A model generated the notes under the pieces. That model was not told the origin of the DNA. It did no database searches and was given only the letters and a program-made list of their open reading frames with translations. From a virus, in the UHGV virus genome UHGV-0177896: a stretch of 41,409 nt of DNA, one strand, 5' to 3'. Below are positions 2,570-29,294 of the stretch, in pieces (within the stretch, counting starts at the first letter, position 1; every line of letters starts with the position of its first letter). The position numbers were made by a program, and so were the translations under genes.

Positions 2570-3143
2570 CATCCGGCGCGGTGCTGGTATCTGTTGCCGT
2601 CACCGCGTCAATGTAATCCAGCACGGCGTTAAGTCGGGTTGTTTCTGCCTGCGTCAACTTCCGTCCGGCCTGTAATTTCAGCTGAATCAGACTAATGGAA
2701 GCCATTGCTGCATTAATCAGTGACTGGCGCTGTGCTTCTGCCGCGTCTAGTGCGGCGCTATGCTGTACCTCGGTATCCGTCATCCATTTCTCACCATCCC
2801 ATTTATCGTATGGCGTTAATGGGGCGATAGTGGTTGTATTTTCAGGGTAATCACCCGGAACTGTGATTTCTTTGGTATCTCCCGTTTCGGTACTATAGAC
2901 AACTTCACCGCGATGGTCTGGCACATATTCCCATGAATTTAAATCTACAGAGCGACAGATTGCATAACCAGCTTTATGTGTACCTGGTGCATCCAGACAG
3001 GAACATGCCGGGATGCCGACGCCGACAGAAAGATATTCAGTTGATGCAGAAATATATTCCCGCGTCTCACCGTCATAGTTATAAACGGTGATATTTCCTG
3101 CTTGAGTGGCAATAAATTCGTTATTTAATACAGCGTCATTCAT
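2541..3143 (-). CDS. Tail-fibre assembly protein (Tfa/U-like)
   Basis: 200-aa ORF directly downstream of the tail-fibre gene. C-terminus RLNAVLDYIDAVTATDTSTAPDVIWPELP parallels the alternative copy. Confidence 0.75.
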   Translation of the reverse strand: MNDAVLNNEFIATQAGNITVYNYDGETREYISASTEYLSVGVGIPACSCLDAPGTHKAGYAICRSVDLNSWEYVPDHRGEVVYSTETGDTKEITVPGDYPENTTTIAPLTPYDKWDGEKWMTDTEVQHSAALDAAEAQRQSLINAAMASISLIQLKLQAGRKLTQAETTRLNAVLDYIDAVTATDTSTAPDVIWPELPEE

Positions 3144-3964
3144 TATGCAGCTCTCACGATATAATTAAATGCAATATTACGGGGACGCGCGGATACGTAA
3201 GCCCACCAATCATATCTTTGTGCACCTTTGCTGGATGCATCAAATATCCACTTTTTGCCATTTATGGTGTTCCACTGATTGGAGGTAAGACTGTCACCGA
3301 ATCCATAGTTTGCAGAACCCAGCGAACTGATATCCCCTGTATCATTGTCATCAAAGCCGGAAACGATAGTCCCCTCCTGAAATGACAGTATCGTACGCCC
3401 TGAGTCAACCCCGCGCCCGTCATCCCAGCCACGGATAAACTCCCCGCGCAAATCAGGCAGTCTGAGCGACGGATAGGCAAGCGCCAGTTGGGGGTATTGT
3501 GAGGCCGTGAAAGCAGCTCCATTACACTTGAGCCATCCCGCTGGCGGGACGGCAAGAGGCCACGGCACCGGAACGCCAACAGGCAAAGCAGAGCCTTCTC
3601 CCAAACCAAGGTTTTCGAGAGCCGTTTTCACCGTGCCATCCGATTTGATATCACCAAACGGATTCTTGCGGCTCAGGTATTCAACAGCAAACCCCGATCC
3701 CAGCAATTCAACAAAACCGGGCAGATCACCATTATCAAGCACATCCCGTTGCGTTTTATCACTTACAAACTGGGCCAGAGCTGCAGCAATAAAGCTGGCC
3801 TGCCGAATAACCTTATTGACTTGCGCACTGGAGGCTTTCCCTGCTGTAAATCCAGATAAAAGCGCGGGCAACGCTTCCCATTCCTCCTGCGATATAACAT
3901 TGGCTTTTCGATCCGTTGCAAACGCTTTAAAGTCATTTTTCGCCATCAGAGTAATACTCCCCAT
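3143..3964 (-). CDS. Tail-fibre protein (constant N-terminal part plus variable C-terminal part)
   Basis: 273-aa ORF. The crossover site at 3596..3621 lies in-frame and encodes ENLGLGE about 119 codons in. An alternative ATG at 3946 overlaps the upstream stop as ATGA. Confidence 0.75.
3596..3621. repeat. Invertase crossover site, right (hix/gix-like 26 bp)
   Basis: Reads TTCTCCCAAACC AA GGTTTTCGAGAG, containing the AAACCAAGGTTT core typical of Hin/Gin/Pin sites. Inverted partner at 1780..1805. Confidence 0.8.
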
Positions 3965-4626
3965 GCTCCTACATCAAAACCACTGATGAATTCGTTATCC
4001 ATATCAAAACCAAAAAATTTTGAGCCTTCCGATGGGGTTTCCACCGAAGGTGTTTCAATGCCACCCGCCCATACCCCGGCGGCTTTTACTGTGAGATACC
4101 CCTGTTTAATTGCCGCAATTAACTCACGCGATACATCTGAAATATCAGTATCAGGAAAGACCCAGACCGATATCGTCATGTCCTGGTTATCGACTATCTG
4201 CATTCGCAGTCCGGATCCTGCTGTTGCCGCGTCAAGAATTGCCGGAAGCGAATCATTCCGTCCGTCCCAGTTATTAATCGCAATCTTCGCTTTAAGGATG
4301 ACACGATAAGTTTCATCGCTGAGGTACATGTATCCGGAATCAGGATCGTATGGCCCCTGCCATACACCCTGATCATATCCAAGCCCGTCGGTATCCCAGC
4401 TGAAATAAACACCTGAAATAGGCTGGCTGACAACACGGCTACGTCCGATCCACAATCCCAGAATGTCAAGTTGCACACCAACCGCAGAGTCAATATCAAA
4501 TGCAGTAATCAGCCCTCTGGTGGCAGCCGCAACATCAATAAGCGGCCGGGTCATCAGATCAACATGTGCAAGAAATTTAGGTTTGGTGGCGTGGTAGTTC
4601 GTGATTAGTTCGGTGTATTTGCTCAT
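3946..4626 (-). CDS. Baseplate/tail protein (Mu gp48-like, YmfQ-like)
   Basis: 226-aa ORF immediately upstream of the tail fibre and downstream of the J-like baseplate gene. Family assignment from position and general sequence character. Confidence 0.6.
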
Positions 4627-23467: not shown

Positions 23468-24016
23468 ATGAAGTTAGAAGATTTCGCAGCTTATAACCGC
23501 CCTCAATCGAAGGTGTCCGATGAGAGGAAATTTCTTGATTACATTCACAGTCGGAACAGATGGGTTGAGTTTATCAAAAGCATCGATAACGCAAAGCCAG
23601 TATCAATTGCCATGAAAAATTCATTCCATAGTCAATGGGTTGAGTCTGGGGCCTTTATACGTGAAAAGATCAACGACGACTCAATTCTCCTCAAACTATT
23701 AACGCTCTTATTGCCAACATATGATGGTGACAGCCTTGTACTTTATCGGGGGGAAAATAAAGACAGGTTCGATAAAGGGCTCATTGGATTTTGCTGGACA
23801 ACGGACATTTCAGTCGCCGAGAAGTTTGGTCGTGGATTGAATGCATACAAATCACCAGGTTTGCTGTTAAGAGCTGAAGCTCCAGCCTGTTCTATATTAG
23901 CTGGCCCCAATGCCCACAGTCGTTATCTTGGTGAAAATGAGTTCACGGTTAACCCCTCGCGTCTTTCAAACATAACCGTTATTGAAACCTATCCGGACAA
24001 CTCTTTTTTCAAATGA
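23468..24016 (+). CDS. Orphan cargo protein antisense to the late operon; possible ADP-ribosyltransferase-like fold (hypothesis)
   Basis: 182 aa; ATG at 23468 with a GAGG SD 5 nt upstream. Lower GC than its neighbours. Contains LYRG (Arg), FCWTTD (S/T-S/T) and GENEF (ExE) in the order of R-S-E ART motifs. Confidence 0.6.
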   Translation: MKLEDFAAYNRPQSKVSDERKFLDYIHSRNRWVEFIKSIDNAKPVSIAMKNSFHSQWVESGAFIREKINDDSILLKLLTLLLPTYDGDSLVLYRGENKDRFDKGLIGFCWTTDISVAEKFGRGLNAYKSPGLLLRAEAPACSILAGPNAHSRYLGENEFTVNPSRLSNITVIETYPDNSFFK

Positions 24017-24590: not shown

Positions 24591-24870
24591 CACCCGAAAC
24601 AGCCACTTTGATATCTTCCTGGGTTCTCTGTGACTCCAGTGCGATCTGCTGTTTTGCATGCTGGTTAGCCTCTATAACTGTATTGATGATTTGCAGAGAT
24701 TGCAGGACGTTACTGGTAATGGCTGTTGCAGATTCAGCATTTCGTACAGCCTCATCAGCACGCTCCTTTTCGTGCTGATATTTGCTGTAGTAATGCCCGG
24801 CAGACCAGATAAAAGAACCGATGACGGTAACAAAGAAGGCAACAATAACCAGCTTATATCTCAGCTTCAT
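24478..24870 (-). CDS. i-spanin (Rz-like)
   Basis: 130 aa with an N-terminal TM helix (LVIVAFFVTVIGSFIW) and charged helical periplasmic domain. Directly downstream of the endolysin. Confidence 0.75.
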   Translation of the reverse strand: MKLRYKLVIVAFFVTVIGSFIWSAGHYYSKYQHEKERADEAVRNAESATAITSNVLQSLQIINTVIEANQHAKQQIALESQRTQEDIKVAVSGDDCAVRIVPSGAVKRLHEYANGIRVGAGRSVTSQSDG

Positions 24871-25330
24871 TTACCACCCCACCAGCTTCTTTAAATCGGG
24901 AAATCAGGTCACCGATTCTATGTTCATACTGACCGTAACCTGCACCAGGTAACGACGCCCAGATATTGCTGCACCGGTCGATTGCCTGACGAATATCGCC
25001 GCGGTCAATCATCGGTAAAGCGCCACGCTCTTTAATCTGCTGCAGCGCTACAGCATCCTGACTTTCTGGAGAAAAATCTTTCAGGCCAAGTTGCTTGCGG
25101 TAGGCATCCCACCAGCGTGAAAGAAGCTGGTAACGTCCAGCGGCTGTTGATTTGAGTTTCGGATTTAGCGTGACAAGTTTGCGGGGGTGATCGGAGTAAT
25201 CAGTGAACAGTTCGCCACCGACAATAACATCATAACCGTGATTTCTGGTTTTCTGCCGTCCGTTATCTGTTCCTTCTGACCATGCCACCATATCCAGGAA
25301 AGCTTTACGCTGGGAATTAAGTGTCTGCAT
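24854..25330 (-). CDS. Endolysin (lambda R-like lytic transglycosylase/lysozyme)
   Basis: 158-aa ORF between holin and spanin with a strong AAGGAG SD. Sequence character consistent with the lambda R family. Confidence 0.75.
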   Translation of the reverse strand: MQTLNSQRKAFLDMVAWSEGTDNGRQKTRNHGYDVIVGGELFTDYSDHPRKLVTLNPKLKSTAAGRYQLLSRWWDAYRKQLGLKDFSPESQDAVALQQIKERGALPMIDRGDIRQAIDRCSNIWASLPGAGYGQYEHRIGDLISRFKEAGGVVNEAEI

Positions 25331-25333
25331 TAA

Positions 25334-25675
25334 TTACTCCTTATGGGCACCGAACTTGTTACCGATGACCCTCATTGCCGCACCACGAATAGCATCAACA
25401 CCAATCAGCCCCACCCCACCACCAATGGCAACAGAAAGTGATTTAGGCCATCCGACATACTCAAGCGCGGATGCAAAGGTCAGCGTCAGAGCACCACAAA
25501 GCAGAATCTCAAGCGTTTTTCGTTTCCAGCCGCCGCCACCGCCAAAATAGGCAATGCGCAAACCAGCCATAATAATTGACATAACCACTGCGCCCAGCGG
25601 CGTATCTCCACGCCACCAACTTTGTAAGAGTTCCAGTAAGTCAGGCCAGGAATGAGGGGCATTGTGCATTTTCAT
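25334..25675 (-). CDS. Class I holin with dual start (lambda S-like)
   Basis: Begins MKM (ATG at 25675 and 25669), the same Met1-Lys2-Met3 arrangement as lambda S107/S105. Multiple TM segments and a charged C-terminus. Confidence 0.75.
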   Translation of the reverse strand: MKMHNAPHSWPDLLELLQSWWRGDTPLGAVVMSIIMAGLRIAYFGGGGGWKRKTLEILLCGALTLTFASALEYVGWPKSLSVAIGGGVGLIGVDAIRGAAMRVIGNKFGAHKE

Positions 25676-25891
25676 AAGCCTCAGCTCTGAGAGTTCGGAT
25701 GGTGCTAAGTGTAAGATTCAGGCTCTCAGGCTTGCTAACAAGAAGTCGAGGATGTTTCCGGAGCCTAACAACGAAAAGCCCCGGGACATGCCGGGGCCAG
25801 ATGGAGTGCCAGATTAAGCTTCTGGCAGTATATACTCGTGTTTGATATCGTTAAATCGCCAAAAGTAACAATTCAAACAAAGAGGATTTTT

Positions 25892-26053
25892 ATGTCTGAA
25901 AAAAACAAGCCACAAGGTGAAAATAAACCTCAGCAACCCGTGGCACCAAAACCAACTCCAACACAAAGTACTGCAGACTTTGCTACACGTCGTGTTTTTG
26001 TTGGAGATTCTGCCGACTCAGTCATTGAACATATAAAAAAACAGCCGAGATAA
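25892..26053 (+). CDS. Small low-complexity hypothetical protein, convergent with the membrane cargo gene
   Basis: 53 aa (MSEKNKPQGENKPQQPVAPKPTPTQ...) with an AGAGGA SD 6 nt upstream of ATG 25892. Its 3' end overlaps the membrane gene on the opposite strand. Confidence 0.35.
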   Translation: MSEKNKPQGENKPQQPVAPKPTPTQSTADFATRRVFVGDSADSVIEHIKKQPR

Positions 26054-26591
26054 ATATCGCAGCTACCGGAGCAAGGATGGTATACATCCTTGCTTTATCG
26101 AGACTCGTGCGGATTTTCTCATTTTCCAACAGTAACTCTCTTGCTGTATCACTCAAGTCAACAAGGCGATACCTTCGTATAAGCGGCAATAACTTATCAG
26201 GTCCTAAATATCCTGCATCAGCGAATATTTTAAAGCTCGATGGCTCCATATCCTTATATTTTTCATGATATAGATGATCAGGAGGGGCATTGATCAGGCC
26301 CCTAACCTTCACAGATAAACCAGTACATACCAAGTAAATGGCGCACCATGTCCATAGTAATGTAAATGTGGTAATTCCAGCGGTGAGAAAATCGAAATTA
26401 GTTTTCTGTGTCAGCAATAAAAAAGATGAGCCAATTCCAACAATCTGAATGTTCAGAAGTTTGTATCCATTCTCAACATTGGTTTTGTTAGAAAGATGAA
26501 TCTCTCGTATCGTCTCTTCCCCTTGTTTTTCAAGATAATCGACGAGCTCATCATCTACTCCTAAAAAATAATCTTTAGGTAGTTCTCTCAT
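26022..26591 (-). CDS. Hypothetical membrane protein, first gene after PR'/tR' (stx-equivalent cargo slot)
   Basis: 189 aa with a GGAGGTGA SD, a ~45-aa acidic N-terminal domain and about three TM helices. Markedly AT-rich. Sits between the Q terminator and the holin. Confidence 0.6.
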   Translation of the reverse strand: MRELPKDYFLGVDDELVDYLEKQGEETIREIHLSNKTNVENGYKLLNIQIVGIGSSFLLLTQKTNFDFLTAGITTFTLLWTWCAIYLVCTGLSVKVRGLINAPPDHLYHEKYKDMEPSSFKIFADAGYLGPDKLLPLIRRYRLVDLSDTARELLLENEKIRTSLDKARMYTILAPVAAIFISAVFLYVQ

Positions 26592-26699
26592 CTCACCTCC
26601 ACATCCTGTACTGAAAACAATTTTACCAGAATGTCTCGATTCCAGGTATTCCGCCAGGAATCGCGCTCCAGAAATGAAACATCAGGTTCGCCAGTACCA

Positions 26700-26730
26700 G
26701 AAACAACAAAACCCGCTCAATGGCGGGTTT
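26700..26730 (-). terminator. tR'-like rho-independent terminator downstream of PR'
   Basis: Stem AACCCGC/GCGGGTT with a 6-nt loop, followed on the minus strand by TTTTGTTGTTT. Lies about 55-60 nt downstream of the predicted late promoter. Confidence 0.6.
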
Positions 26731-26787
26731 TGGTAAAGTTCATGCGCTTGGTTCGCCTCGCGATACAGCTTTGCGAAGCATACCGGA

Positions 26788-26816
26788 ATTGAAGCAGTTT
26801 ATGCGTAAAAAATCAA
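26788..26816 (-). promoter_or_regulatory. Late promoter PR'-like (-35 TTGATT, 17-bp spacer, -10 TTCAAT) overlapping the Q stop
   Basis: Minus strand reads TTGATT-N17-TTCAAT immediately after the Q gene, with the tR' hairpin a short distance downstream. Same layout as lambda PR'/6S/tR'. Confidence 0.45.
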
Positions 26817-27355
26817 GCTATTTTTTGAGCAAATGATTCTCGCATGGGAATATATAGGGCATACTCAGCAACAGCCAACCAATTAGCAATTCGCTTTTCG
26901 CATGTGCTAAAACACCACTCAGGATGTGCATCATTTAGCAATTCAGCCATTTTGCGCTTAGCCATCCCCCGTCCTTCATACCGTTGCCGGAGGACACTAA
27001 TCAATCCAGGATGCTCTGCCAGCACCTCACTTATGACTCTATCAATACATAACGCCTCTGCATCAGTACAATGCGCCAGCCAGGTCTTTTGCTTGCCATT
27101 GATCATCTCTCGCAAAAACGCTTCCAGCTCAGGTTTCTCTATTCCCGCTTTTTTCATCCTGCGCAGGGCTTCATTGACGGCTGTTTTCGTCAATTTTTGG
27201 GATGCCAGCAACTGGTTAAACATATTTCCCGTCTTACCGCCGCCAATATACGACCAGCGCCCCCACATGCGCAGTTTTCCCTGAATCCAGACACTTTCCA
27301 GCGTGGTGAGACGAAGGTGTTCCCCGCTTTTGCCTGTATTTGTTGGGTAAATCAT
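26813..27355 (-). CDS. Late-gene antiterminator Q
   Basis: 180 aa from ATG 27355 (MIYPTNTG...) with a GGAGAAAGG SD. Last gene before the PR'/tR' signals and the lysis cassette. Start overlaps the upstream stop as ATGA. Confidence 0.65.
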   Translation of the reverse strand: MIYPTNTGKSGEHLRLTTLESVWIQGKLRMWGRWSYIGGGKTGNMFNQLLASQKLTKTAVNEALRRMKKAGIEKPELEAFLREMINGKQKTWLAHCTDAEALCIDRVISEVLAEHPGLISVLRQRYEGRGMAKRKMAELLNDAHPEWCFSTCEKRIANWLAVAEYALYIPMRESFAQKIA

Positions 27356-27642
27356 AAATAACCTTCCTTTCTCCAGATTTCTTGTGTGCGAAAAACACCT
27401 TCTGCATGCATCAGGCGTAATTCTTCTTTGGTGTAATCGCTGGTTTTTACCCGCCCGTCGATTAAATCGTGGCATGAGCTGCAGGCAATCGCTGCCTGCA
27501 TATCGTGTGGTTTTGTCGCTGTTCCGCACGTCCCCGCCAACCTGTAATGCGCCAGCACAGAAGTTTCGGGATTGTGATTGCAGTAGCCAGAAATTCTGAC
27601 GGTGCACATCTGCCCCCGCGCCGCTTTACGTAAATCCACCAT
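27352..27642 (-). CDS. YbcO-like protein (DUF1364; putative Zn-binding nuclease of nin regions)
   Basis: 96 aa: MVDLRKAARGQMCTVRISGYCNHNPETSVLAHYRLAGTCGTATKP...IACSSCHD, a Cys/His pattern remembered from YbcO of DLP12-type nin regions. Immediately upstream of Q. Confidence 0.55.
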   Translation of the reverse strand: MVDLRKAARGQMCTVRISGYCNHNPETSVLAHYRLAGTCGTATKPHDMQAAIACSSCHDLIDGRVKTSDYTKEELRLMHAEGVFRTQEIWRKEGYL

Positions 27643-28241
27643 TACGCAAACTCCAGTAACTGTGCGGCCACATTTTCGACTTCCTCCGGAGAGGAAAATT
27701 TACGGAACAGGATCCAGTTCCACAGCACATTCAGTACAGATTTATAAACCTGCTGAAACACGGTTTCGTCCATGTTCGCAAATGCGATAGATTTTGCCCT
27801 GCACCCACGACTACCATCAGGATAAATATGCTCGGTGTAAAATCCGGCCTGAATGGTTACCCACTCGCGGAAAGCGTCAAACGACTTTAGCAATGCCGTA
27901 TCCCGGGTTCTGCATGTCGCAACTGTATTAAGGTATTGCTCTGCGGCATCACTCAGGGCTGGAGTGTGTTCCCGACCTACTGATTCGCACAGGTAATCAA
28001 CGAAGCCTGATACCAGTTTTCGTTCGCGAGGCGTGATCGCCCCACCGACCGGAGTCCAGTAATCGAATCCCAGTTGCAGGAGTTTGAAAAAACGCTTGTG
28101 GAATGCGTAGTTACGCACACGCTTAAAGTCTGCGTGTATCCACTCACCTATTTTGATTTGATGCAAAAAATCGCAACTCTCCGGCGTCGCCGGGAGAAGT
28201 AATCCGGAAGAGGTTTGTTTGACCAGTTGTATATGCGCCAT
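27642..28241 (-). CDS. Nin-region hypothetical protein (DUF1367-like)
   Basis: 199-aa ORF with a GGAGAA SD, translationally coupled to the YbcO-like gene. Family name is a tentative recollection. Confidence 0.45.
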   Translation of the reverse strand: MAHIQLVKQTSSGLLLPATPESCDFLHQIKIGEWIHADFKRVRNYAFHKRFFKLLQLGFDYWTPVGGAITPRERKLVSGFVDYLCESVGREHTPALSDAAEQYLNTVATCRTRDTALLKSFDAFREWVTIQAGFYTEHIYPDGSRGCRAKSIAFANMDETVFQQVYKSVLNVLWNWILFRKFSSPEEVENVAAQLLEFA

Positions 28242-28704: not shown

Positions 28705-28732
28705 CGCAACAAAAAACCCGCCGAAGCGGGTT
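28705..28732 (-). terminator. Rho-independent terminator at the 3' end of the hok-type toxin transcript
   Basis: Stem AACCCGC/GCGGGTT followed on the minus strand by TTTTTTGTTG, about 70 nt downstream of the toxin stop. Confidence 0.6.
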
Positions 28733-28800
28733 TAGTGCGGGTGCGTTGAGGGTGCCTGACACATGAGAGGTGGCGAGGGATTTCTCCCCCGCCTGGTCTC

Positions 28801-28956
28801 TTACTCCTCAGGTTCGTAAGCTGTGAAGACAGCGACCTCCGTCTGGCCGGTTCGGATTCGTACCTCGCAGAGGTCCTTCCTCGTTACCAGTGCCGTCACT
28901 ATGACGGTTAAACAGATGACAATCAGGGCGACTAACATCGCCTTTTGCTGCTTCAT
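28801..28956 (-). CDS. hok: Hok/Gef-family type I toxin (51 aa)
   Basis: MKQQKAMLVALIVICLTVIVTALVTRKDLCEVRIRTGQTEVAVFTAYEPEE: a single TM helix plus the conserved RKDLCEV...IRTGQTEVAVF core. AAGGAGAAG SD; an in-frame upstream ATG at 29013 may correspond to mok. Confidence 0.85.
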   Translation of the reverse strand: MKQQKAMLVALIVICLTVIVTALVTRKDLCEVRIRTGQTEVAVFTAYEPEE

Positions 28957-29294
28957 AGCCTGCTTCTCCTTGCCTTTCGGCACGTAAGAGGCTAACCTAC
29001 ATTTGTGAGACATAGATTGGGCCTCAGATTAATGTTAAGCGTCTTGCAGGACGCGTAATGTTAACTGGGGCTTTTCTCTGTCTGCCTTACAGTGGCATGC
29101 CCGAGGCAGACAGCCTCAAGCACCCGCAGCAATCTTACCGACACCGATAAGAAAACGCTATTTTTTATTGCCAGCACCTTCTATCCAGGCTAATTTATCT
29201 GCGTCAGAACGGCGCAATGCGCTCGCCTGAGATACGTTTACTTGCCATGGTAACAACAGGTAACGGCAATTGTTGTTTCTGTTTTGTTTCCTTC

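Follow-up and report, generated by a model that had tools for sequence, protein, structure and literature searches.

UHGV-0177896 is a viral genome of 41,409 nucleotides (called the window here, at its full length) that corresponds to a lambdoid Escherichia coli prophage with its late region on the minus strand. Between the late antiterminator gene Q and the holin gene it carries a cassette of approximately 860 bp, from 25777 to about 26635, whose sequence features mark it as a self-contained, horizontally mobile accessory element (moron) made of two convergent units. One of them codes on the minus strand for a membrane protein of 189 amino acids (aa) (26022-26591) and the other on the plus strand for a 53-aa protein (25892-26053), and the 3' ends of the two open reading frames (ORFs) share 32 nt (26022-26053). 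Comparative evidence identifies the small ORF as a real gene and a near-obligate partner of the membrane-protein gene. We consider it quite possible, and prefer among the readings discussed below, that the two form an antagonistic, toxin/antidote-like pair, in which the membrane protein would be an effector restrained by a small gene expressed in the lysogen.

A convergent gene pair between the antiterminator and holin genes

The slot is bounded upstream by Q (26813-27355, minus strand; Pfam DUF1133, E=1e-108, and Phage_antitermQ, E=5e-6; "DUF1133 family protein" in the PGAP annotation) and downstream by a lambda-family holin gene (25334-25675, minus strand; Pfam Phage_holin_3_1, E=2e-27). A candidate PR'-like sigma-70 promoter, TTGGCT-18-TATATT, with 9 of 12 matches in a consensus scan, lies in the 3' end of Q (26849-26878, minus strand), and a terminator scan placed a tR'-like intrinsic terminator, with a 10-bp stem followed by TTGTTTCT, between Q and the membrane-protein gene (26707-26732, minus strand). 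The GC content of that gene is 38.4%, versus 49.3% for the window. In the chromosome of E. coli AVS0790, which is 100% identical across both ORFs, PGAP lists both products as hypothetical proteins (WP_021527603.1 for the membrane protein, which falls in PHROG 11870 with no function assigned, and WP_001419877.1 for the small protein, in PHROG 14506).

This anatomy agrees with a preliminary description of the window, which had placed a cargo gene in the Q-to-holin slot, downstream of a PR'-like promoter and a tR' terminator. It had further described the product as an AT-rich 189-aa protein with an acidic N terminus and about three transmembrane (TM) helices, in line with the GC content above and with the charge of -6, the hydropathy and the AlphaFold2 helices reported below, and had noted a convergent 53-aa ORF rich in Pro, Lys and Gln, with a good Shine-Dalgarno sequence and an overlapping 3' end, as we also found. 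A hairpin that it had reported at 25776-25800 is present as well; its description needs correcting in that it is a minus-strand terminator, located in a conserved end of the cassette that also holds the putative small-gene promoter.

The small ORF is a conserved gene paired with the membrane-protein gene

The 53-aa protein holds 7 Pro, 6 Lys and 5 Gln, and an AAGAGGA Shine-Dalgarno sequence precedes its ATG codon. ORFs of 30-70 aa occur by the dozen in the window, and one of 53 codons is by itself not above chance, so that its reality rests on comparative evidence. Searches of a protein database returned only close relatives of the small ORF. With tblastn and direct inspection, however diverged the membrane-gene homologue that we looked at, its 3' end was overlapped by a convergent ORF of 47-58 aa. 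A hidden Markov model of the small protein matched in 102 of the 105 loci that have a full-length membrane gene, always on the opposite strand and with an overlap of 20-42 nt; a closer look at locus L104 revealed a diverged copy, which brings the paired loci to 103 of 105. They span Escherichia, Citrobacter, Serratia, Yersinia, Pantoea, Providencia, Morganella and others. The sole true exception is a Salmonella lineage (L026 and L027), in which the membrane gene stands without a convergent small gene. In the Salmonella enterica locus L026 (AAEDGP010000025.1, 4590-5000), a co-directional ORF beginning MKLTVGDIRFSESGY follows the membrane gene and may be an alternative partner.

Pairwise ratios of nonsynonymous to synonymous substitution rates (dN/dS) for the small ORF ranged from 0.08 to 0.32, with dS near saturation, and mismatches at codon positions 1, 2 and 3 numbered 1278, 1028 and 2039. 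Low dN/dS and third-position periodicity argue for selection on the small protein and not merely on an RNA or DNA element. The membrane ORF is also under purifying selection, its length being kept across 24-98% identity. The small-protein consensus starts with M-S/T and a variable Lys/Pro/Gln-rich stretch, continues with [D/G]-F-[S/T]-x-x-R-[V/M]-x-V-G-D-S-A-[D/E] and ends in a basic tail; the overall charge is +3, and the basic tail is conserved. AlphaFold2, run on the single sequence, returned a low-confidence model in which the N-terminal half is unstructured and the conserved C-terminal half forms two short helices.

Several variant alleles were recorded. In L004 (E. coli 126096; hits H31, H33 and H35), a 1-nt deletion in the overlap yields a longer, read-through small ORF and changes the C terminus of the membrane protein (190 aa); this allele makes up about 10% of the sampled E. 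coli copies. The members of 100 and 130 aa in the small-protein cluster may represent it, and one 100-aa sequence is present on about 400 contigs. In L003 (E. coli E1, 2918-4080), an IS3 insertion eliminated the larger part of the membrane gene and left the small gene, with its putative promoter, intact.

Conserved RNA elements delimit two predicted, overlapping transcription units

An intrinsic terminator at 25777-25798 (minus strand; 8 pairs followed by TTTCGTTGTT in the terminator scan) closes the membrane-gene unit ahead of the holin gene. In other genera it is conserved, with compensatory changes, beside unrelated holins. Next to it lies a second conserved hairpin, TGCCAGA-N7-TCTGGCA (25807-25827), detected by cross-genus alignment and folding, whose 3' arm overlaps the -35-like element described below; folded together with this upstream hairpin, the terminator has a free energy of -26.3 kcal/mol (z = -3.4). 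In every locus the minus strand past the start of the small gene presents the same succession of a conserved box, the TGCCAGA...TCTGGCA hairpin and an intrinsic terminator. The terminator scan of the window detected no other minus-strand terminator from the stop codon of the membrane gene to 25798. Since none intervenes, a membrane-gene mRNA that is not antiterminated would end just before the holin gene and include the complete antisense sequence of the small gene.

On the plus strand, the putative small-gene promoter (25822-25869) comprises a -35-like CTGGCA (25822-25827), an extended -10 element TGaTATCGT (25843-25851) 18 nt downstream and then a conserved box, TAAATCGCCAAAAGTAAC, with a predicted start at about 25858. 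The pattern was found in all 40 unique upstream segments, positions outside the anchoring pattern being at least 90% conserved. In the extended -10 element the TG, T-12, A-11, T-10 and T-7 are kept and the two least critical positions vary, and the downstream bases ATCGCC..A.A..AAC are again at least 90% conserved. The promoter box is also found in a module whose membrane protein is only 24% identical, and before an unrelated gene in locus L029. Readings of the conserved box as a sigma-28 or a sigma-E promoter were rejected on comparison by eye with the consensus sequences. A minus-strand promoter at 25854-25827 was also discarded, since other loci do not share its -10.

Upstream of the membrane gene, most other genera carry a hairpin equivalent to the tR'-like terminator, with compensatory changes. 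In the window a further box, GACATTCTGGTAAAAT (26620-26635, minus strand), looks like an extended -10 promoter (TGg-TAAAAT) with a predicted start at about 26613. The corresponding box GACATTCnGGTAA(A/G)AT, about 30 nt 5' of the membrane-gene ATG, is kept in 10 of 16 diverse loci; as GACATTCnGGTAAAAT it recurs in the majority of loci and may serve the membrane gene as a promoter. It is missing in Morganella and Pantoea, where a terminator lies right against the ribosome-binding site.

A stem-loop in the predicted small-gene transcript (26069-26095, plus strand; arms GAGCAAGGATG and CATCCTTGCTT) lies inside the membrane-gene codons for approximately R166-P175. It begins 15 nt past the stop codon of the small ORF, and 15-27 nt past it across loci. 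Its folding energy is -18.4 kcal/mol (z = -4.9) on the plus strand versus -15.0 kcal/mol on the minus strand. Among 41 unique ungapped sequences, 83% of the cells were paired and 8 of the 15 pairs changed on both sides; none of 500 shuffles reached the observed covariation, and shifted registers paired at 39-48%. Pair 20-48 is G.U in 38 of the 41 sequences, which imposes an A as first codon base on the membrane strand: the codons are AGR (Arg) or AAR (Lys), not CGN (Arg). The frequency of G.U pairs points to a structure specific to the plus, small-gene strand. In 10 of 14 loci the stem-loop was more stable on that strand, a count with some bias since the hairpins were picked on it. The structure is weak in the lineage that lacks the small gene and equally weak in two lineages that have it, a comparison that was not counted as evidence. 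The role of the stem-loop may differ between loci, with termination in some and stabilisation or processing of the 3' end in others.

The membrane protein belongs to a widespread family

The membrane protein is predicted to be a three-helix inner-membrane protein with almost nothing in the periplasm. On the Kyte-Doolittle scale, residues 45-61, 68-92 and 169-189 have mean hydropathies of 1.73, about 1.5 and 1.87, respectively. An AlphaFold2 model built with 36 homologues (mean predicted local distance difference test score of 83) contains long helices at 14-62, 68-92 and 134-188, the first and last of which are predicted to pass from the cytoplasm into the membrane. The net charge of -6 in the 43 N-terminal residues and the 14 Lys or Arg residues in region 93-168 fit an N-in topology that places the two soluble parts on the cytoplasmic side. 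From the N terminus, the predicted layout comprises an acidic helix in the cytoplasm, TM1, in which VGIGSSF is invariant, TM2, a basic middle part that is again cytoplasmic (RRYRL) and a C-terminal TM helix.

In a collection of 5.8 billion proteins we retrieved 104 clusters of this protein with 42-98% identity, nearly all of 189 aa and all hypothetical, from Escherichia, Klebsiella, Citrobacter, Enterobacter, Salmonella, Serratia, Yersinia, Pantoea, Providencia, Proteus, Morganella and Sodalis. Among the residues that do not vary in the family are F9, E21, E25, VGIGS-F in TM1, W80, P104, L107-Y108, R140/R142 and P175. With a profile, we found about 100 more clusters (50% identity level) among 1.84 billion representatives; they measure 160-200 aa and retain the architecture down to about 20% identity. 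By these comparisons the protein is a member of a real, widespread family that lacks a curated name. Searches of Pfam and NCBIfam gave no match for either the membrane or the small protein, and PHROG only families with no function assigned; PADLOC-DB v2 holds no family for either at E <= 1. A Pfam scan of 40 distant relatives of the membrane protein gave sub-threshold noise only and no holin family, a sequence-profile search of the PDB nothing below E = 0.09, and fold searches with the model only non-specific matches to long helices. Rfam returned nothing inside the cassette, and a literature search by accession and PHROG identifier found no paper on either protein.

The module occurs in 254 of 5426 complete E. 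coli genomes. It is rare in isolated phages, where tblastn found the membrane gene in 5 of 50,697 records, and in plasmids, with two records in a plasmid collection. A role as a plasmid addiction module was rejected, as only those two plasmid records were found. A 52.9%-identical membrane gene is present on two records of about 47.5 kb, Actinobacillus phage vB_Apl-pPE4 (PP818812.1) and the 47.7-kb E. coli plasmid CP100067.1. Near the Q terminator PP818812.1 is 92.7% identical in DNA to the window, and it may in reality be a phage-plasmid of enterobacteria.

An inner-membrane protein encoded by a prophage moron has the classic profile of a superinfection exclusion protein, and some relatives of ours lie in accessory spots (cI-adjacent, or in a tail-gene moron cluster). 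The protein might then block DNA entry or a membrane receptor, as do P22 SieA, HK97 gp15 and T4 Imm, the small gene only regulating its level. We regard this as unlikely: known exclusion proteins act alone, with no obligate convergent partner, and the soluble regions of the membrane protein are both predicted to be cytoplasmic, leaving almost nothing in the periplasm. Neither does homology point that way, as Pfam gave no match at all, its SieB family (PF14163) included, and none of the five phage records found by tblastn is named P22, HK97 or T4.

The module is found in several accessory sites

In close relatives the module has a constant place: it follows the late antiterminator gene and immediately precedes the holin gene. 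The surroundings vary: the neighbouring Q genes belong to three unrelated families (DUF1133, PF03589 and PF06530), the holins to holin_3_1, holin_2_1/2_3 or holin_8, and the lysins to GH24 or GH19. As judged with a small reference set, a recognisable holin or endolysin gene lies at most 2.5 kb downstream in 83 of the 105 loci, and a Q gene upstream in 81 of 105. Distant relatives of the membrane protein (24-36% identity) keep a convergent, proline-rich small ORF with a basic tail (e.g., MSNKKEKSPPPPPPPPPQKSGRTLPAFDHKPKGLKKTQNKRK and MSDKKTNSPAKTTQKPVENGYSKPKAPPPPPVSQSVPTFDHMPEGLKKKK). Two of them adjoin a cI-like repressor gene and cro; in these, the small gene follows the repressor gene immediately and in the same orientation, which would imply expression in the lysogen. 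Another is part of a tail-gene moron cluster that also includes PemK, a lipoprotein and an antirepressor, and one sits after a VapE-like primase gene. As the pair is kept outside lysis regions, it is a portable module independent of the lysis genes, and it favours sites where temperate phages keep accessory genes that are expressed in the lysogen.

The first place in the late operon, immediately before the holin gene in close relatives and within the distance just given of lysis genes in most loci, could also point to a lysis-timing accessory. The membrane protein would then be an antiholin, a holin modulator or a depolarising factor whose expression in the lysogen is blocked by the small gene. 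We consider this quite unlikely. The presence of at least three unrelated holin families and of varied endolysins makes a specific protein partner unlikely, distant relatives lie away from lysis genes, and a prophage with the same holin (L029) has unrelated cargo at this place. No holin-family match was obtained with the query or with the 40 relatives scanned.

Prophages of the same backbone carry other cargo (L029) or extra genes (L030) at this site. In L029 (E. coli FDAARGOS_1287, NZ_CP070071.1, 3194-3472), an unrelated 92-aa gene (MASFTVRVELVG...) occupies the position and orientation of the small gene. The holin and the terminator/promoter block are the same as in the window; the 92-aa gene converges on a 76-aa gene, and there is no Pfam or PADLOC match. 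This arrangement suggests that the promoter block drives interchangeable opposite-strand cargo.

A moron is an independent accessory transcription unit within a phage operon (PMC3594210). The cassette has a downstream terminator of its own, is present or absent between adjacent genes and deviates in GC content; as for a promoter of its own, conserved extended -10-like boxes precede both genes, below the threshold of the scan. In its predicted layout the cassette fits the structural definition of a moron.

The comparison of Q-S intervals (between Q and the holin gene S) across related prophages, which the preliminary description had called for, showed both ORFs preserved in 103 of 105 intact loci. 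Its suggestion of an antisense or partner relation was strengthened by this pairing and by the purifying selection, the conserved overlap, the strand-specific covarying stem-loop and the conserved promoter. As to the exclusion or abortive-infection role that it had raised as a possibility, neither protein matched a known toxin-antitoxin, holin, superinfection-exclusion or defence family. Its view of the module as Q-S slot cargo is true for close relatives; the slot is not intrinsic to the module, since distant relatives reside beside the immunity region or in other accessory spots.

The lack of a family match and the frequency of truncated alleles would be expected of a selfish or decaying passenger with no function relevant to the host, the small ORF and the RNA features being by-products. 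We find this very improbable, as both ORFs are under purifying selection and keep their lengths over 24-98% identity, the stem-loop covaries, and the architecture is conserved across genera and contexts.

A possible antagonistic pair switched between lysogeny and lysis

In the antagonistic pair that we prefer, the membrane-gene transcript, with predicted ends at about 26613 and 25777 on the minus strand, would cross the whole small gene and its promoter and end at the 25777-25798 terminator. The small-gene transcript, from about 25858 to about 26097 on the plus strand, would enter the last 75 nt or so of the membrane coding sequence, where the stem-loop would end or stabilise it. With this geometry each RNA would be antisense to the other. 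In the lysogen the small gene would be on, through its own promoter or by read-through from a repressor operon, and its transcription, its RNA and probably its protein would keep the membrane protein low or inactive. Restraint could be exerted by promoter occlusion or transcriptional collision, by an RNA duplex and probably by direct binding, for which the basic tail of the small protein could contact the acidic cytoplasmic N-terminal domain of the membrane protein. The balance would be reversed at induction, when Q-modified late transcription sweeps over the small gene, or in the cI-adjacent relatives by the shut-off of PRM. It could also be reversed at superinfection if the incoming phage stops host transcription and the small RNA or protein is short-lived, the classical route of abortive infection. 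The freed membrane protein would then act on the inner membrane, in abortive infection, in exclusion or in a membrane function of the lytic phase. The comparisons establish the anatomy, the pairing, coding selection on both genes, the stem-loop, the conserved promoter-like boxes and the portability; the promoter activity, antisense interference, protein contact, membrane-protein toxicity and biological role in this scheme are what we infer.

In favour of such a pair speak the near-obligate convergent pairing and its persistence in distant relatives at other sites, the purifying selection on the small ORF, the strand-specific stem-loop, the promoter-like box conserved across genera, the terminators on either side of the cassette, the low GC content with mosaic flanks, the place of the small gene behind the repressor gene in the cI-adjacent relatives and the precedent of Tai/Ati in phi80, discussed below. 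There are two further hints. The charges of the putative partners are opposite, -6 for the N-terminal domain of the membrane protein versus +3 for the small protein. Decay is asymmetric: disruptions of the membrane gene next to an intact small gene recur, and the converse is seen in one lineage only. Frameshifts interrupt the membrane gene in L010, and many clusters are truncated (e.g., P0036, P0085 and P0096).

Other observations speak against it. The decay asymmetry rests on few independent events, toxicity or membrane activity of the 189-aa protein has neither experimental nor homology support, and the promoters and transcript ends were deduced from sequence only. A U-tract follows the stem-loop in a minority of loci only, which makes termination uncertain, and a common E. 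coli allele alters the C termini of both proteins. In the L026/L027 lineage the membrane gene persists with no small gene, which makes strong unconditional toxicity unlikely, unless the co-directional ORF replaces the antidote.

It is a more tentative proposal that the module represents an undescribed class of phage-borne toxin/antidote or abortive-infection systems. Such a class would combine a three-helix membrane effector with a convergent gene of dual function, providing both an antisense mRNA and a proline-rich, basic neutraliser of about 50 aa, and it would be portable between Q-S, cI-adjacent and other spots in Enterobacterales and beyond.

Relation to known systems

Convergent, 3'-overlapping genes are known from type I toxin-antitoxin (TA) loci such as txpA/RatA and bsrG/SR4 of Bacillus subtilis and par fst/RNA II of Enterococcus faecalis. 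Like these, the module combines a membrane-targeted product with a short gene on the opposite strand, would have 3'-complementary transcripts, resides in a prophage and would give the short transcript a structured 3' end; gene and terminator geometry implies, from sequence only, that the overlap of the transcripts is complete. However, type I toxins are typically shorter than 60 aa, whereas the membrane protein here has 189 aa, three helices and two cytoplasmic regions. The opposite-strand gene also differs in coding for a protein under purifying selection and not for a noncoding RNA, although an additional role of its RNA is possible. Type II TA systems are co-directional bicistronic operons with a DNA-binding antitoxin; here the genes are convergent, and the small protein, for which Pfam gave no domain, is predicted to be largely disordered.

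Cargo genes of lambdoid phages in the Q-S slot include stx in Stx phages and the nmpC/lc porin genes in DLP12 and PA-2. The cassette shares with them the slot, the AT richness, a terminator and probably a promoter of its own, and a mosaic distribution. It differs in consisting of two convergent genes with mutual antisense overlap and in having no homology to virulence or porin genes.

The distant relatives in a rexAB-like place, downstream of the repressor gene, recall lambda RexAB, SieB and P22 SieA, as does the coding of an inner-membrane protein by a temperate phage. In contrast to these systems, the partner is a disordered protein of about 50 aa and not a RexA-like sensor, and neither protein has a Pfam or PADLOC match. 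Homology to SieA, SieB or RexB was likewise not detected, as neither protein has a Pfam family and none of the five phage records with the membrane gene is named P22 or lambda.

In the Tai/Ati system of phage phi80, an antagonistic pair, one gene lies on the opposite strand within the Q-driven late operon, an arrangement termed a "noncontiguous operon" (PMC11364771). The opposite-strand gene is expressed in the lysogen, and its level falls when Q is made; the partner comes from late transcription (PMC11364771). The module is similar in that the small gene on the plus strand interrupts the Q late operon, between Q/tR' and the holin gene on the minus strand. The sizes are reversed: in phi80 the opposite-strand product is a large, 26-kDa soluble defence protein and the late-strand gene is small, while here the late product is a membrane protein. 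No homology to Tai/Ati was seen with the membrane protein, since none of the five phage records in the tblastn search is named phi80; the presence of phi80 in that collection was unchecked, and the small protein was not directly compared.

This likeness raises an alternative in which the polarity of the pair is reversed. The small protein would be an effector expressed in the lysogen that blocks a step of incoming or competing phages or a host target, and the membrane protein a late, Q-driven factor of self-immunity that would sequester or neutralise it while the prophage goes through its own lytic cycle. Besides the shared layout with phi80, such a polarity would account for the small gene having the best-conserved promoter and for its placement, like rexAB, downstream of the repressor in cI-adjacent relatives. 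It would also suit Morganella and Pantoea, where the membrane gene, with no recognisable promoter and directly after the terminator, would be transcribed mainly by antiterminated late transcription. On the other hand, most loci have a conserved -10-like box before the membrane gene, which lies outside the late operon in the cI-adjacent relatives. A mostly disordered protein of 47-58 aa would be an unusual effector, and the prophage would become autoimmune whenever the membrane gene is lost and the small gene kept, as happens repeatedly. None of the five tblastn records being a phi80 record also counts against this polarity, which we consider improbable. Overall, the module appears to resemble most the 3'-overlapping type I TA loci of Gram-positive prophages and Tai/Ati, yet sequence similarity was found to neither, and it appears to belong to no named family.

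Other features of the window

Further late-region genes on the minus strand are DUF1367/NinB (27642-28241) and DUF1364 (27352-27642) and, on the other side of the cassette, a GH24 endolysin gene (24854-25330) followed by Rz. On the opposite strand, between Rz/Rz1 and the small terminase gene, a 182-aa ORF (23468-24016, plus strand; WP_000762846.1, hypothetical) is likely another moron. By eye, its YRGE...WTT...ENEF motifs recall R-S-E ADP-ribosyltransferases; Pfam gave no match and PADLOC only noise.

The nin region contains a complete hok/sok type I TA locus upstream of NinB (28801-29125, minus strand; Pfam HOK_GEF, E=2e-23; Rfam sok, 118 bits). Beside it, a sub-threshold Rfam match to the small RNA isrK was found (28711-28792, minus strand; 29.8 bits versus a gathering score of 50). 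IsrK of Salmonella Gifsy-1 is a regulator of a toxic gene that is linked to an antiterminator.

Significance

The cassette is common in E. coli and in many enteric genera, yet both of its proteins carry no more than a hypothetical annotation and fall into no curated family. Its stem-loop, under selection inside a coding sequence, offers a clean case of overlapping RNA and protein constraints. If the pair is a toxin/antidote or defence module, it would represent a novel architecture combining the logic of type I and type II TA systems, with a protein-coding antisense partner set over a large membrane effector. It would also be a second case, apparently unrelated in sequence to Tai/Ati, in which a gene on the opposite strand of a Q late operon serves as a switch between lysogeny and lysis, and the Q-S slot, home of the Shiga toxin genes, would be a site for defence cargo as well.

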